DNA of 64,000 nucleotides. Source: Promethearchaeati archaeon SRVP18_Atabeyarchaeia-1. Its GTDB lineage: Archaea; Asgardarchaeota; Atabeyarchaeia; Atabeyarchaeales; Atabeyarchaeaceae. This document shows, piece after piece, positions 32,068 to 48,212 of this stretch. Below the pieces are notes generated by a model that did no database searches, had not been told where the DNA came from, and saw only the letters and a list, made by a program, of their open reading frames with translations. Numbering within the stretch: position 1 is the stretch's first letter; every line of letters begins with the position of its first letter. The translations under genes were made by a program, and so were the position numbers. Location of the stretch: assembly GCA_037308085.1 (NCBI GenBank), contig CP147779.1, positions 416,001-480,000 of the forward strand. The letters run 5' to 3'.

Positions 32068-32144
32068 GGGCCGGTAGCGCAGGCTGGAAGTGCGCCGGCT
32101 TCGCAAGCCGGAGGTCGTGGGTTCAAATCCCACCCGGTCCACCA
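32068..32144 (+). tRNA. tRNA-Ala(CGC), intronless
   Basis: Cloverleaf, CCGGC-TT-CGC-AA-GCCGG, G3:U70, encoded CCA. Confidence 0.95.
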
Positions 32145-32446: not shown

Positions 32447-32809
32447 TAATATAAACTCCCATGAAACCGGTTGATCCTGCCGGACCCAACCGCTATCGGA
32501 GTGGGACTAAGCCATGCTAGTCGAGCGCCTCGGACTATGGCGAGGCGCGGCGTACGGCTCAGTAACACGTGGTTAACCTAACCTCCGGACGGGGATACCT
32601 CCGGGAAACTGGAGCTAATACCCGATAGGTGAATAGTTCTGGAATGGCTTTTCACCCAAACGGCTTTGACACCATGTTTGCCAACGTCGCCAGAGGATGG
32701 GACCGCGGCCGATTAGGCTGTTGGTGGGGTAACGGCTCACCAAACCGACAATCGGTACGGGCCGTGAGAGCGGTAGCCCGGAGATGGGGACTGAGACAAG
32801 GCCCCAGGT

Positions 32810-32846
<37 letters not shown>

Positions 32847-32985
32847 TGGAAACAGCGACGGGGCTACTCCGAGTGCCGTCCGCTAAGGGCGGCTTTTCCA
32901 CAGTATAAAAAGCTGTGGGAATAAGGGGAGGGCAAGGCTGGTGCCAGCCGCCGCGGTAAAACCAGCTCCTCGAGTGGTTGGGATG

Positions 32986-33016
<31 letters not shown>

Positions 33017-33198
33017 TTGTAAGTCCTTGGCTAAATCCGTCAGCCTAACTGACGGCGTGCTGAGGATACTGCTTGGCTTGGGGGCGAGAGAGGCTGAGGG
33101 TACTACTGGGGTAGGGGTGAAATCCTATAATCCCAGTAGGACCACCTGTGGCGAAGGCGTTCAGCTGGAGCGCGCCCGACGGTGAGGGACGAAAGCTA

Positions 33199-33232
<34 letters not shown>

Positions 33233-33333
33233 TAGCTGTAAACTATGCGGGCTAGGTGTTGGAGCGGCCACGTGCTGCTCCAGTGCCGAAGGGAAGCCGT
33301 TAAGCCCGCCGCCTGGGGAGTACGGCCGCAAGG

Positions 33334-33375
<42 letters not shown>

Positions 33376-33481
33376 AAGCCTGCGGTTTAATTGGACTCAA
33401 CGCCGGGAAACTTACCGGGGGCGACAGCAGAATGAAGGCCAGGTTGACGACCTTGCTTGACAAGCTGAGAGGTGGTGCATG

Positions 33482-34392
33482 AGGCCTTCAGGTCGTCCTA
33501 AAACTCTTCGCGGCTTCCTCTAACCTCTCTACGATGTGACTCATAGTCGTCTCTGTAGGAAGGCTGTTGACAAGTGTTGGCGAGGGAGTTCAAATGAACT
33601 CGCTTGTGCCTTTCTTAGGAGGGGATCATGACGATCGTTGACGACAAGAGGAAGTATGTTCTGGTCAAAACGAAGAGTCTTATCCGTCGTCTGCGCCAAC
33701 AAGACTGTGGGGCTCTGCAAGGAGTATACAGGCACGTTGATGACTTGGTTGAGTGGAATACCTTTCGAGACTGGGCGTATAGAGGCTGCTTCCGGATGCC
33801 TCTCAACGTGTTCGCAAGGTTGAAGAAGACATATGAGATCAAGGACGTGCCGCGAGTGGTCACAGAGACTCAATGGTACGCAGAGACACGCAAGAGAGCA
33901 GCAAGAATAATGCACGAACGCCACCCCCATAAGGAGTGGCTATCGCGAGCAGCGAAGGCTGGCGGTGAAGCTGTAAAAGCCAAGTACGGGATCAGGTATC
34001 TGACAAAACTCTCTGGATCTGCCATACATTCATCAGCCAGATACCGATACAAGGATGGATATGGAATAGAATACCGTAGCCGCCTGGAACTGCGGGTTGC
34101 GGATTTGCTGCGCAAACATGGATACAAATTCGATTATGAACCGGAGATAGATGGATACATCCCTGACTTCCTAATCAACCACACAATAATCGAGGTTAGC
34201 GGATACTTTCGCGACCACGATTATCTTTCAAGACTCCAGATCAAACTTGCAGACCTAACCACTAAGGGTTGGGATATCATCGTTGTATGTGAACCGCGAA
34301 ACAAAGCTGCTCTCCAGCAGGCGCTCGTAGGAATACGAGTCAAGGCAATTATGACAACGGATGAGTTCGGACGATGGCTGTAGGTCTGCGAA
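33482..34392 (+). mobile_element. 911-nt BHB intron in 16S (about E. coli 1057/1058) carrying an ORF
   Basis: Central helix TGCA/TGCG, bulges TGA and AAG; excision restores GGTGCATGGCCGTCG. Confidence 0.9.
33628..34383 (+). CDS. Intron-encoded PD-(D/E)xK-like endonuclease
   Basis: C-terminal YRS.LE..VA..L...G....YEP....YIPDF....IIEVSG; basic N-terminal half. Confidence 0.7.
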   Translation: MTIVDDKRKYVLVKTKSLIRRLRQQDCGALQGVYRHVDDLVEWNTFRDWAYRGCFRMPLNVFARLKKTYEIKDVPRVVTETQWYAETRKRAARIMHERHPHKEWLSRAAKAGGEAVKAKYGIRYLTKLSGSAIHSSARYRYKDGYGIEYRSRLELRVADLLRKHGYKFDYEPEIDGYIPDFLINHTIIEVSGYFRDHDYLSRLQIKLADLTTKGWDIIVVCEPRNKAALQQALVGIRVKAIMTTDEFGRWL

Positions 34393-34849
34393 GCCGTCGT
34401 CAGTTCGTGCCGTGAGGTGTCCTGTCAAGTCAGGCAACGAACGAGACCCCTGCTTACAGTTGCTACCAGGCTTAGAAATGGGTCTGAGCACACTGTAGGG
34501 ACTGCCGGCGATAAGCTGGAGGAAGGAGGGGGCCACGGCAGGTCAGTATGCCCCGAATCCCCCGGGCCACACGCGGGCTGCAATGGTTGGGACAATGGGT
34601 TCCGACCCCGAAAGGGGAAGGTAATCCCGAAACCCAATCTCAGTTGGGATCGAGGGCTGCAACTCGCCCTCGTGAACATGGAATCCCTAGTAATCGCGCG
34701 TCATCATCGCGCGGTGAATACTGTCCCTGCTCCTTGCACACATCGTGTCTAGGAAGCGCTTAGCGCGAGTGTAGACCGCCCGTCGCTCCACCCGAGTCGG
34801 GTTAGGGTGAGACGTAGCCTTTTTGGCCACGTCGAACCCAGGCTCGGCA

Positions 34850-34880
<31 letters not shown>

Positions 34881-35341
34881 AGACTCCGTAGGGGATGCTT
34901 GTGATTGTGATGGGGTGGCATCCGCCTTTTGCTTTGTATGCAACGACTTTGTTGCGGCTTGAGGTGTTCTCGTAGGTTCCGTGTTGCGCGTCTGATGTGT
35001 TTGGGATGCGTTTCCGAGGTTTCGTTTGTCTCCTTGGAGTCCGGTAAGGGGAACCTGCGGCTGGATCACCTCCTATGAATCCCCACCCGTTAGGGTGGGG
35101 TTCTTCCGCCGCGATTGTTGCCGAGGGGTTGGCTTACATGATTGTTGTGGGGTTTCGAGCCCGCCTACCTGCTTCTCACTGCTCATTTTGTTTTCCTGGT
35201 TATCCGATTAGCCATGTTATTGTCTAGCATTTGCTTTCTCTTTTCTGGATGGCTTCGGATTCGGAAAGCTGGGCGTGTTACTGTAGTTGGTGACCTTTAA
35301 TGTCATCATCCATGACTAGATGATTGTGAGCTACGAACTCC

Positions 35342-36025
35342 TTGAAGGGTGTGGGCTTTCTGGTTCAATTTGATAAGATTCTGTTGAGGACCGATCAGTC
35401 GGCGGAGGCAACTCCATCCATCTGCTATCTTGCAGGTACGTTCAGAGATGGTTGCATATCAACCCAGTGGCAGATCAAGATCAAGCAGAAATCGAGGCAG
35501 TATCTTCTCAATAAGATCATACCAATACTAAACCAAGAATCCAATCTCCATTTGACAGAGAGAGCCGTCTATTTGCAGGCTGACGCAAATAGGCGCTTTT
35601 ATGTCGCGTTCAAGAGAAAGAAGGCATGGGGGCAGCTCAGGAAAACTTTCAGCATCCCCCCAGACAGTGTAAGTTAGGGAACGCCGCCGTTCGTCAAAAA
35701 ACTAGACAAAGCCCTGTTGCGTTTCTATATACAGGGCTTCTTTGACGCTGAAGGTGGAGTGCCCCGTAACCCGATGAGCTCCAAATTGTACATCTCATTC
35801 ACCCAAAGAAACCGTGAATCCCTAGAGTTTCTAAGAAACAAGCTGTATTCCGAGTGGAATATTGTCTCGGGCAGGCTGAGGATTTCTGATAACAGGTCCC
35901 ACTGCTGGAGGTTCACGATTGCTGGGCTAGGCTCGATCAAACGATTCATGACAGAGATTGGAACGGAACATCCATCTAAGGAGAGAAGATTCACTATCAT
36001 TTCGAATCTGCTTAAAGGCTGGTAG
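35342..36025 (+). pseudogene. LAGLIDADG homing endonuclease with in-frame TAG at 35675-35677
   Basis: YLAGTFRDG (ORF 35342-35677) and YIQGFFDAEG (ORF 35717-36025) are in the same frame, separated by one stop. Confidence 0.8.
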
Positions 36026-36145
36026 GGGAACCTGCGACTGGATCACCTCCTACGAAGTCCCGCCCAAATGGGCGGGCTTCCTTTCTGCCGCATGTGTTGT
36101 TTGGGATCAGCTTACATGATAGCCAACGGGTTTTGGAGCCTACCG
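36022..36145 (+). repeat. Diverged second copy of the 16S 3' end and downstream trailer
   Basis: GTAGGGGAACCTGCGACTGGATCACCTCCT, a GC hairpin and GCTTACATGAT, mirroring 35044-35145. Confidence 0.85.
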
Positions 36146-36300: not shown

Positions 36301-36969
36301 CTATTCGAAGTACACGAGAGCGAAAGCTGTTGCCATGACTGCCATTCCTACGATTAGCTGTCTGAGAGTGATGCGGGAGGCCAGTGCAACGAAGAGAACG
36401 CCAAAACCTATCATGCTGACGACTACTACAAAGTAAAACGGCCTGAGAATGTCGGGTTTTCCAATTCCATAACCAAATAGCGTCCCAGTTATGGAGTGTA
36501 TAATCAACCATAGCACACCGAGGAATATGAGGATCAGTCCGAGTCCCGCGGCGATCCCCCTTGCGCTCCCTCTTCGGCCCCATCCCCACTCGTTCCGCTT
36601 TCTTTCGTCGGGCTCAAGAAAATCTAGTCTCAACCGCGCATTCCCACCTCTGATCACTGTCAACACGAAATCATCCCTAATGATGATCTTGATGGGCGCC
36701 ATATATATGTAGAGCGGCATCTGGTCGGGTGGATCATCATAGTCCCTAGATAATTGAGAGAGAGAGAGAGAGCCATCAAGAAGGTCATTATGTTGTATGG
36801 AATGTGTCCGGGAAGAATCAGGGACAAACCTGCGGTGAAGGAACTCATAGAGCGAATTATGGTGGAGGCGGGCGATACAATAGACTGGCTCGATGAGCTC
36901 TGGGGAAAAAAGGCACCTAGATAGGCGCTGGTAGCGCTGGACATCCATGAATGCGTCCATGTCCGTCAC
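36301..36969 (-). CDS. Possible membrane protein, perhaps decayed
   Basis: Three hydrophobic segments in the C-terminal half; N-terminal half uncertain, with a (GA)n run at ~36756-36772. Confidence 0.35.
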   Translation of the reverse strand: MTDMDAFMDVQRYQRLSRCLFSPELIEPVYCIARLHHNSLYEFLHRRFVPDSSRTHSIQHNDLLDGSLSLSQLSRDYDDPPDQMPLYIYMAPIKIIIRDDFVLTVIRGGNARLRLDFLEPDERKRNEWGWGRRGSARGIAAGLGLILIFLGVLWLIIHSITGTLFGYGIGKPDILRPFYFVVVVSMIGFGVLFVALASRITLRQLIVGMAVMATAFALVYFE

Positions 36970-37382
36970 CCTTATTACAGCTTCAACTCATACCTGTACT
37001 AGGGGTGAGAGTGAGACACGGCGAAATGCCCGAGATGTGGAGAATGGATGAGAACTGAGACTCGAACTGAACCGCTTCTCGGATTGAGTAAGAAGCGTCC
37101 AGCGTTCCCTAGGACAAAAAGACGTGACGTGTGTCCGCATTGCCACTACAGCACCATGTGGATCTAGTCGTAATAGGTTGCGCCTCTCCGCGAGAATGCC
37201 CTAGGAGGGTGCGCCCTGTTTCCTGTTGTTGTCCTGGTCGTTTTTCGTTGGGGTGGCTTGCTTTCTGTTTGGGGCCTTTTCCTGTGTGTGGGGGTTGGTT
37301 CTTTTCGGTGGGGGCTTCTAGCCGAACATTATTTAAGCTTGTGGAAGCGAATGCTTTGTTTGGAATACTTGTCTTGGCGCAG

Positions 37383-38036
37383 ATGGGAGGGTGTTTAGCT
37401 TTGGCTGCTGGTGGTCTGCATGAGGCTTTAAATAGGTGCCCCAGGTGTGGTGCTGGGATGGAGTATCTTGGGAGGTCGGTGGCGTATTTGGAGTCTGGAG
37501 GCATCTCCGCCTTGTTCGAGGTTTATGTGTGCAGCAGCTGTCTTACGGTGCAGTTGGTTTCTTTCGGTAACGAGAGGGCCTATCGAGATCTTGTCAGGAA
37601 AAATGTTGGGCCATCATCGTTTCTCAAGCCGTGCGTCAGCTGTGGGAGCAGGATTCCCATAGCGTCGGAGGAGTGCCAGTTCTGCGGATCAAAGCAGCCG
37701 CCTTGGGATGAGGCTAAGAGGGGGAGGACGCAGGCTGAGCAAGCCTTGATGCAGAAGCTGGCTGAAATTATGAGAAGGAAGGCTGACGCGCGACTGCAGG
37801 GTGCGGCGCTCTCTAGTGGAGGAGGTGAGTCTGCGCCCGAGTTGGAGGCGGCGCCTCAGATTGAGGTGAAAGAGAAGCCAGGAGAATGCATGGTCTGCCA
37901 TAGCCCAGTGCTGAAGAAGGATGATGTGATTACTTGCCCTCACTGTGGAGGCGTTGCCCACAGGGTTCATATGCTTGAGTGGCTGCATGTCAAAGGCACC
38001 TGCCCCGCGTGCCATCAGCCGATAGCCCATCCTTAG
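37383..38036 (+). CDS. Zn-ribbon protein with C-terminal RING-like domain (start uncertain)
   Basis: CPRC, CSSC, CVSC, CQFC, then CMVC-x11-CPHC-x4-H-x2-H-x3-W-x6-CPAC. Confidence 0.75.
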   Translation: MGGCLALAAGGLHEALNRCPRCGAGMEYLGRSVAYLESGGISALFEVYVCSSCLTVQLVSFGNERAYRDLVRKNVGPSSFLKPCVSCGSRIPIASEECQFCGSKQPPWDEAKRGRTQAEQALMQKLAEIMRRKADARLQGAALSSGGGESAPELEAAPQIEVKEKPGECMVCHSPVLKKDDVITCPHCGGVAHRVHMLEWLHVKGTCPACHQPIAHP

Positions 38037-38866: not shown

Positions 38867-42207
<3,341 letters not shown>

Positions 42208-42641
42208 TGAAATTCCTTGGTTCGGGTGAAATTGGGTTTCTGGGGACGTTCTGGGGGTGGAGCCTAGTGCACGGCTGTTGCCGCTTCCGTTTTCTGCAGT
42301 TGCCTCTCTTGAGTACGTGTGACCATATTTCTCAACAGAGATTCCTGTCTGAGAGGAACCAGATTTACTCGAACAGTTTTCCTTGGCGCTCGAGAGTTTG
42401 GATTTACCGCACTGTGTCAGAGAGGGGGGAGAGAGTGTGTAACGGGGAAGCGCGTTCATCCACACTGATGTCAGGGTGGCTGGATGCATGAGAAGTACGG
42501 CGGTAACCACAACCCATCTTGATGGTGCTCTGCTTGAACTCTCCATCCTTGGCGCCAAATGAGAATATTCGAAAAGTATATCTGGTTGGTGCTCCAATAC
42601 CGCTTCTTGATTTGATGATATGGTGATGGAGGGAATGGTCT

Positions 42642-44801: not shown

Positions 44802-45209
44802 GAGTCAGGATGTGGGAGCGCGGCTGCCGGTACCTTTCTTGCTCCTTTGGGGAAGATAGGCGCTGAGGAAGGTCTCCCCTCCACCAGACAGCGGTGCAGC
44901 GAAAGCTGCGGGGTGAGAGCCTCGCTCCAGGATCAGAAACGACACGTCCACGTGCGGAATGACCATGATGCGGTTGAGAAGACGCCTCTGGGTGTTTTCG
45001 AGCAGGGTCTTGGTAACATGGCCCAGTAACCCGTTGAGGATGCATGTGGGATCGTTGAAACGGCCTGCCACTGCGGAGAAAGCCCAAATAGGCTGTGGAT
45101 GATGAGTCTGGCTGAACCAGCGGGTAGGGTGAGTAGCTGAATGCCGCAAAGGGTGCTTCGGCGACGGGGCACCTGGAACAAAAGGGGGCCTACTACCCAC
45201 ACCTGGCTC
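44802..45209 (+). ncRNA. rnpB: RNase P RNA
   Basis: GAGGAAGGTCTCCCCTCC (CR-I), CAGAAAC, TTGAAACGGC, TGAATG, AACAAAAGGGGGCCTA (CR-V); terminal pairing GAGTCAGG..TGTGGG/CCCACA-CCTGGCTC. Confidence 0.88.
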
Positions 45210-47981: not shown

Positions 47982-48137
47982 TTGCCACAGATTGTGATCT
48001 GACAATTCAGATTGGTTACTCTTATATCTTTCTACGGATCGATACTGTGCCCCAGTGTTCTGAAAGATGTCTAGAAGAACCCGCTTCGACTGCGTCAGCC
48101 TCGCTCTCCCTCAGCGCCTACAGATGGAGTAGTTAAG

Positions 48138-48212
48138 TGGACCGGGTGGGATTTGAACCCACGACCTCCGGCTTGCAAAGCCGGCGCGACTTCCAGCCTG
48201 CGCTACCGGCCC
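48138..48212 (-). tRNA. tRNA-Ala(UGC), intronless
   Basis: Near-identical to the Ala(CGC) gene; anticodon TGC. Confidence 0.95.

Follow-up and report, generated by a model that had tools for sequence, protein, structure and literature searches.

A 911-nt intron in the 16S rRNA gene of an Asgard archaeon and its candidate non-LAGLIDADG homing endonuclease

Which enzymes carry introns into the ribosomal RNA (rRNA) genes of archaea? To our knowledge, all of the characterised archaeal rRNA-intron endonucleases are LAGLIDADG proteins. Surveys of such introns recognise their open reading frames (ORFs) by the LAGLIDADG motif (PMC4496867), and other enzymes would therefore have been overlooked and filed as "hypothetical". 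The question is raised by a 64,000-nucleotide (nt) stretch of DNA from Promethearchaeati archaeon SRVP18_Atabeyarchaeia-1 (positions 416,001 to 480,000 of contig CP147779.1, assembly GCA_037308085.1; hereafter, the window), in which an intron of the bulge-helix-bulge (BHB) type interrupts the 16S rRNA gene and holds an ORF with no LAGLIDADG motif. An earlier note, made from the letters of this DNA alone, had proposed that the ORF encodes a PD-(D/E)xK-like nuclease aimed at the intron-less form of the same site. Having followed up that proposal, we think it likely that the element is a mobile BHB intron, lodged in the sole 16S gene of its host and spread by its own non-LAGLIDADG homing endonuclease.

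The intron in helix 34 and its release as a circle

The 16S rRNA gene lies on the plus strand at 32464-34889, as delimited by the Rfam model RF01959 (1293 bits). Its first exon (32464..33481) stops at ...GGTGCATG, and the second (34393..34741, up to the next small intron) opens with GCCGTCGTCAG, which leaves an intron of 911 nt at 33482..34392. Since the bases flanking each junction differ, the boundary is unambiguous and cannot slide. The insertion point is in helix 34, between what we take to be G1057 and G1058 in E. coli numbering (counted by hand against the E. coli sequence and the 1055F primer). A genome search found one 16S copy and one copy of the intron in the 2.81-Mb single-contig genome. 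In G002, a closed genome from the same family, the site is uninterrupted, and ggtggtgcatg is directly followed by gccgtcgtc; the flanking exon of G002 is 98% identical to the host 16S over 182 nt, and for ~30 nt on either side of the junction its allele is the exon sequence itself. The joined exons match both this allele and the Rfam consensus, so that removal of the intron restores a normal rRNA, and a natural intron-less allele is therefore available. In G003, from the same genus, the 16S around the insertion site is unassembled and hence uninformative.

The splice sites are enclosed in a BHB motif, the 5′ half of which spans 33471..33491 and the 3′ half 34378..34398, both on the plus strand; folding the joined end sequences also supports the motif. 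Its outer helix pairs GGUGG (33471-75) with CCGUC (34394-98), and its central 4-bp helix pairs UGCA (33476-79) with UGCG (34387-90); on each strand 3 nt bulge out, as UG^A (33480-82) and as AA^G (34391-93). In the inner helix, GGCCUUCAG (33483-91, pairing as GGCCU.CAG) faces CUGUAGGUC (34378-86, pairing as CUG.AGGUC), and this helix extends into a longer stem, UCGUCC / GGACGA. Archaeal splicing endonucleases cleave between the second and third nucleotide of each bulge. A register-strict scan of 160 x 160 pairs of candidate splice sites around the two junctions returned 33481/34392 as its sole match, with every pair formed in the central (4/4), outer (5/5) and inner (5/5) helices. The intron thus has the full hBHBh′ architecture, namely two 3-nt bulges on opposite strands, a 4-bp helix between them, and helices outside. 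The inner helix also covaries among orthologous introns (their distribution is described below), with both sides of three pairs changed. It reads GGCCU/AGGUC in the host, GGAUG/CAUCC in a Hermodarchaeota genome and GGUAG/CUACC in Borrarchaeum, so that pairs 3-5 are C-G, C-G and U-A in the first, A-U, U-A and G-C in the second, and U-A, A-U and G-C in the third. The stop codon of the intron ORF, UAG at 34381-83, lies in the 3′ strand of the inner helix, with its A and G inside the helix. Three claims of the earlier note were therefore borne out: the exon ends and the uninterrupted sister allele return the coordinates and length that it had given for the intron, the BHB that it had called clean is canonical and unique in the scanned grid, and the stop that it had placed in the closing stem is indeed found there.

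We then asked whether the intron is seen as RNA, by comparing contigs (rather than raw reads) from four RNA libraries with positions 33200-34700. The RNA runs that match the host are of wetland or peat origin. One contig of 941 nt from a wetland metatranscriptome covers exactly 33482-34392, with 0 differences and nothing outside. Its length equals 911 + 30 (k-1), and it is therefore the output expected of a k=31 assembler from a circular 911-mer. A contig from the Joint Genome Institute (JGI), L052, which encodes an 82%-identical homologue of the intron protein, has a 116-nt terminal repeat and closes into a 910-nt circle in which the 3′ end of the intron, ...GGCAAA, is joined to its 5′ end, AGGCC.... 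A further contig, L051, holds both the junction of exon 1 with the intron and the same circle junction. Circularisation is a known fate of excised archaeal rRNA introns. These data show that the intron is released at the predicted bonds and ligated into a 911-nt circle.

The intron-encoded protein and its candidate active site

The ORF (33628..34383, plus strand, stop included) encodes 251 amino acids (aa) and lies wholly within the intron. Directly 5′ of its ATG we read a strong Shine-Dalgarno-like AGGAGGGGATC (33617..33627, plus strand), which is complementary, bar one base, to the 3′ end of the 16S rRNA, GGATCACCTCCT (35066-35077). Public data hold seven full-length homologues with 65-85% identity, together with one identical 157-aa fragment, and none of these public homologues carries a name or a Pfam domain. 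Pairwise dN/dS among the closer homologue pairs is 0.16-0.21, and the intron protein is therefore under purifying selection.

An AlphaFold (AF2) model of the protein (mean pLDDT 88.8) divides it into two parts. Residues 12-78 (33661..33861, plus strand) form a probable helix-turn-helix (HTH) DNA-binding domain of the Xre/Cro type. All of the top VIA matches of this segment are HTH_3/Xre-type domains, at weak scores (Z 4-5.4), and Foldseek with the N-terminal domain gave no significant match. The HTH region, which is confidently modelled, is followed by a helical linker that runs to about residue 136, and the N-terminal module is conserved in distant relatives of 250-280 aa. Residues 138-251 (34039..34380, plus strand) are predicted to fold into an α/β core of the restriction-endonuclease-like (PD-(D/E)xK) superfamily. 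The best Foldseek match of the model is the catalytic domain of the homing endonuclease I-Bth0305I (PDB 3r3p, E 9e-5; probability 1.00 for both 3r3p and Vsr). The best match in VIA-align is the same structure (3r3p_B, Z 9.2, rmsd 2.6 over 84 residues), ahead of Vsr, TnsA, BstEII and other restriction enzymes, and the Can2 nucleases (Z 7.8-9.2 for the whole group).

Pfam gave a single sub-threshold match, to Phage_endo_I (PF05367; 17.8 bits against a gathering cut-off of 29.1), and NCBIfam a faint match to Bax1; neither library returned a LAGLIDADG family with the threshold relaxed to E 10. A profile of the orthologues, searched against 1.84 billion representative proteins, recovered 124 relatives, nearly all of them via residues ~130-225. 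Conservation was scored in two alignments, one of 49 relatives and one of 81, the latter reaching down to ~20% identity. In both, F181 and E189 never vary, and E154, Y170, E171, P179 and D180 are each kept in 90% or more of the sequences; K206 is invariant in the 49 relatives and at least 90% conserved in the 81. When compared with the PDB, the 81-sequence profile matched T7 endonuclease I (E 1e-10), I-Bth0305I (1e-6) and Bax1 (1e-6). Phage_endo_I itself is matched, at E up to 0.01, by just 10 of the 49 relatives.

Based on this conservation, the candidate catalytic residues are E154 (34087-89), D180 (34165-67), E189 (34192-94) and K206 (34243-45), all encoded on the plus strand. D180, within PDF, and E189, within IEV, are conserved. 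The position two residues past E189, where an ExK motif has its lysine, is occupied by S191, and varies among S, A, C, T and V across the family; the conserved lysine, K206, is found 17 residues past E189. Relocated lysines are known in the PD-(D/E)xK superfamily, and it is plausible, judging from the alignments, that K206, which sits on the following helix, is the catalytic lysine in a relocated position.

How does this arrangement compare with those of the nearest relatives? I-Bth0305I is an EDxHD homing endonuclease (PDB 3R3P; PMC3239194), the gene of which lies in a group I intron that interrupts the recA of Bacillus phage 0305phi8-36. Like the intron protein, it is intron-encoded and combines an N-terminal DNA-binding region with a C-terminal Vsr/restriction-like core, and its Glu170 and Asp196 align with E154 and D180. 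However, its intron is a self-splicing one in a phage protein gene, unlike the protein-spliced BHB intron in an archaeal rRNA gene, and no conserved residue of the present family corresponds to the His213 and Asp222 by which EDxHD enzymes are defined; K206 follows instead. Of the four EDxHD residues (E170, D196, H213 and D222), the E and the first D alone are thus conserved. T7 endonuclease I (PF05367; PDB 1M0D/2PFJ) shares aligned RS.LE, YE, PDF and IE motifs, and its E20, D55 and E65 align with E154, D180 and E189. Its catalytic K67, in contrast, aligns with the variable S191, and T7 endonuclease I is a structure-specific resolvase that has no HTH module and is not intron-encoded. With a score below the gathering cut-off and no conserved lysine in the column of K67, the intron protein falls outside Phage_endo_I. 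Bax1 (DUF790), an archaeal repair nuclease, has a core that is related at the profile level (E 1e-6), but it is an XPB-associated repair factor with other accessory domains and no association with mobile elements. Because both the canonical ExK lysine and the His and Asp of EDxHD are absent, we regard the intron protein as a distinct family. As these families are defined, it is outside Phage_endo_I, EDxHD and LAGLIDADG, and we would class it as a separate, previously unnamed family within the PD-(D/E)xK superfamily, rather than as a plain PD-(D/E)xK or T7-endonuclease-I member.

The earlier note's description of the protein consequently needs some revision. Its statement that the ORF is not a LAGLIDADG protein stands, given the lack of any such match in Pfam or NCBIfam and the different fold, and the structure prediction that it had suggested as a check did model the C-terminal half as a nuclease core with I-Bth0305I as the top match. 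The label "PD-(D/E)xK-like" fits the core fold and this match to a homing endonuclease, but not the textbook ExK lysine, which is replaced by S191. Similarly, every element of the dotted motif that the note had written out is present, but the spacings were slightly wrong, and the actual text is RSRLELRVADLLRKHGYKFDYEPEIDGYIPDFLINHTIIEVSG.

Distribution of the intron and of the nuclease family

Full-length orthologues of the ORF were found in 3 of 400 Asgard genomes, namely the host, Candidatus Borrarchaeum weybense, and a Hermodarchaeota metagenome-assembled genome; the latter two ORFs are 65-66% identical to that of the host. In all three lineages the intron that contains the orthologue is of the BHB type and interrupts the 16S gene at exactly the same position, and in all five of the orthologous introns seen, ORF and intron occur together. 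A locus search with alignment A1 returned no orthologues beyond the two already known, and G002, from the host's own family, has no intron at this site. The distribution is therefore sporadic, with one conserved site in distant hosts. The Hermodarchaeota (L001 5063-5860) and Borrarchaeum (L042 ~1833-2630) ORFs have no stop within the intron and read through into exon 2, giving 265 aa. Since these ORFs cross the 3′ splice site, their true C-terminus is set by which RNA is translated, the precursor or the circle.

Homologues in an rRNA-intron context, for which the earlier note had recommended a search, are thus present at this very site in two further Asgard lineages, and more distant ones occur at other 16S and 23S sites. 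P0010 is encoded in a different 16S intron of 790 nt (L004 2932-3721), ~22 nt downstream of the studied site. The same metagenomic 16S gene has a 40-nt BHB mini-intron without an ORF (L004 2865-2904) a few bases upstream of the studied site. Helix 34 seems to be an intron hotspot. Two further relatives, P0012 and P0014, lie inside 23S introns, and P0013 is 200 nt beyond a 23S end. On the AT-rich loci of these relatives the strict BHB scan gave many chance matches and was not used; splice sites were instead set by eye from the rRNA consensus.

Other relatives reside outside rRNA genes. Three full-length distant relatives, P0048, P0057 and P0022 (L009 3001-3860, L010 684-1550 and L047 1312-2176), have their 3′ ends inside tRNA genes with introns (Asn-GUU once and Pro-UGG twice) or a few bases short of them, an arrangement that recurs on three unrelated metagenomic contigs. 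We suspected that these ORFs were inside tRNA introns, since the Rfam tRNA matches start at model position 5-8 after the ORF. This was rejected by eye: two of the tRNA 5′ acceptor strands overlap the 3′ end of the ORF, the third tRNA begins just past the ORF stop, and all three tRNAs carry small introns of their own, so that the ORFs abut the tRNA genes and are not intron-borne. Likewise, no rRNA was found at the 20 Asgard loci that hold the best nuclease-only or multi-HTH relatives, and the nuclease family is therefore not exclusively intronic.

The host itself has free-standing paralogues in which 4-8 tandem HTH repeats of ~45 aa are fused to the same nuclease core (S..EL ... Y.PDF ... IE..G ... 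K). They are found on the host contig (G000:C1) at ~992,640-993,683 (minus strand; L003 1480-2523), at 101,549-103,315 (L049 1050-2816), and at 1,242,049-1,242,927 (L048 2050-2928), the last with one in-frame TAA stop reported. These paralogues look like free-standing homing-type nucleases. A relative of ~175 aa that comprises the nuclease alone (profile positions ~115-245) occurs once per genome in many Asgard genomes; it is listed in families f19, f20 and others (67 of 135 in f20) and may be a housekeeping nuclease. In the ESM-Atlas, the nearest cluster is an unnamed archaeal (Nanobdellota) family, followed by phage proteins that combine an HTH with a nuclease.

The rRNA region of the window has further features. 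Two additional introns interrupt the same 16S gene near its 3′ end (34742-34774 and ~34881-35047), and the Rfam 16S end at 34889 is therefore too early; one of the small introns in this 3′ region splits GCACAC from ACCGCCCGT, and another comes after GGTAGCCGTA. Behind them, a pair of ORFs that carry LAGLIDADG-like motifs stand side by side (35342-35677 and 35717-36025), and the terminal exon then recurs as a second copy, GGGGAACCTGCG.CTGGATCACCTCCT (36025-36052). G002 has none of these 3′-end introns, LAGLIDADG-like ORFs or second terminal exon. The ~4 kb from the annotated 16S end to the 23S rRNA gene includes protein-coding ORFs at 36301-36969 (minus strand) and 37131-38036 (plus strand). 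The 23S gene (38867-42208, by Rfam) is ~355 nt longer than its Rfam model, and the extra length may represent small introns or expansions. The RNase P RNA (44808-45204) and two tRNA-Ala genes (CGC and UGC; 32068-32144 and 48137-48212), which are ordinary features, flank the rRNA region.

Intron mobility, its alternatives and its meaning

If the intron is mobile, its cycle might run as follows. The tRNA-splicing endonuclease would cut both splice sites, and RtcB would join the exons and the intron ends. The N-terminal HTH region and helical linker of the intron protein would read DNA, and the C-terminal core, with E154, D180, E189 and K206 as its active site, would act as the nuclease. The protein would bind uninterrupted 16S rDNA around GGTGCATG^GCCGTC, probably as a dimer because there is one active site per core, and make a double-strand break at the intron-less site. 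Repair from an intron-bearing copy would then insert the intron, and, since the inserted intron would split the recognition site, the carrier would be protected. We favour this reading because a nuclease gene under selection is interlocked with the closing stem, because one exact site is occupied in three distant lineages and empty in a sister genome, and because the closest structural relative of the protein is a proven homing enzyme.

Several points weigh on the other side. Cleavage and binding of DNA, and homing at the intron-less allele, are steps that we infer rather than observe. The canonical ExK lysine is absent, and that K206 is catalytic is guessed from its conservation. The host has a single rDNA copy, so that homing would need an exchange of DNA between cells or between chromosome copies, and most of the Asgard relatives (the 20 loci above) are free-standing and outside rRNA. 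As to the RNA evidence, the JGI sample behind L051 and L052 is of a library type unconfirmed as a metatranscriptome. Exon-exon joints (33481->34393) were found in 4/4 RNA runs, but their short sides, of 20-23 nt, lie in universally conserved sequence; the joints may therefore stem from other archaea, and we give them little weight.

The alternative that survives best, unlikely as we consider it, is that the protein is a structure-selective nuclease like T7 endonuclease I, a resolvase of junctions or branched DNA, which travels in the intron, aids recombination or integration of the intron, and does not itself recognise the 16S sequence. The strongest profile similarity is indeed to this Holliday-junction resolvase (E 1e-10), with the repair nuclease Bax1 also among the matches, and many family members are free-standing. 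Yet the present protein has an added N-terminal HTH-like region for reading DNA that is conserved together with the nuclease, the orthologues keep to one exact rDNA site in three Asgard lineages, the enzyme closest in fold is one that homes sequence-specifically, and the position of the T7 catalytic lysine is unconserved.

Slightly less probable still is an immobile intron whose nuclease has degenerated catalytically and is retained for another role, for instance as an RNA chaperone or maturase for BHB folding, or as a DNA-binding regulator. Such a role would suit the loss of the canonical ExK lysine and the location of the intron in the only 16S gene, which makes efficient splicing essential; moreover, LAGLIDADG enzymes of group I introns can double as maturases. 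However, with E189 invariant and E154, D180 and K206 at least 90% conserved in 81 relatives, the pattern is hard to explain without catalysis. BHB splicing, furthermore, requires the host endonuclease only, and the occupation of one site in three lineages, when a sister genome has that site empty, implies recent spread.

The least probable of the three alternatives, and to our minds an improbable one, is that a selfish or defence nuclease gene of unrelated origin, akin to toxins or restriction enzymes, merely settled in an old intron that had no ORF and whose site was kept by vertical descent: the next-nearest Atlas clusters are indeed phage proteins that combine an HTH with DUF559, DUF7487 or TnsA-like nuclease modules, and the host does have free-standing multi-HTH paralogues, but ORF and intron occur together in 5/5 orthologous introns, the 3′ end of the ORF is interlocked with the closing stem, and the patchy Asgard distribution (3/400), with an intron-less sister, is easier to reconcile with transfer than with vertical inheritance and repeated loss.

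The reading that we prefer, a mobile intron with its own homing endonuclease, draws on a strategy and a nuclease superfamily that are both known; what is new is the enzyme family and the kind of intron that hosts it. Homing enzymes of the PD-(D/E)xK and EDxHD types are known from bacterial and phage group I introns (PMC3384342). One of them, I-Ssp6803I of Synechocystis, belongs to the same nuclease superfamily and also targets the gene of a structured RNA, tRNA-fMet (PMC3384342), but it is a small single-domain tetramer with a canonical PD-(D/E)xK motif, encoded in a bacterial group I intron, and it was absent from the fold and sequence matches of the intron protein and its profile. Conversely, I-DmoI, I-PorI and I-ApeI share with the present system an ORF in an archaeal rRNA BHB intron, a circular excised RNA and presumed homing (PMC4496867), but these are LAGLIDADG enzymes, the fold and catalytic motif of which are wholly unlike those of the intron protein. 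A survey of the Thermoproteales reported 13 intron loci, none near position 1057, and LAGLIDADG enzymes only (PMC4496867). In the literature, our coverage of which is incomplete, we did not come across any account of archaeal BHB introns that encode a non-LAGLIDADG enzyme, and this is absence of evidence only; rRNA-intron ORFs go unmentioned in the Atabeyarchaeia genome paper (PMC11291895) and in a 2026 preprint on Asgard tRNA introns.

We lean, by a modest degree, towards a broader claim, that a new family of BHB-intron homing endonucleases, with an HTH and an E-D-E-K core, is recognised in this ORF for the first time, and that the family has spread to several 16S and 23S sites in Asgard archaea and probably in DPANN, and has free-standing cousins beside tRNA genes. 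Such a family would tie the intron enzymes of archaea to the EDxHD and T7-endonuclease-I-like nucleases of phages. On the practical side, primers in helix 34 and 16S callers will mis-handle these lineages, and the nearly identical intron-plus and intron-minus rDNA alleles of the host and G002 are a natural pair that could be used in a homing assay. If the reading is true, nucleases with long target sites in universally conserved rDNA would offer a new scaffold, and LAGLIDADG proteins would lose their monopoly on the mobility of archaeal introns. The presence in the LAGLIDADG niche of another nuclease family, unrelated to the first, would amount to convergent recruitment by BHB introns, and this in a form that can be tested.

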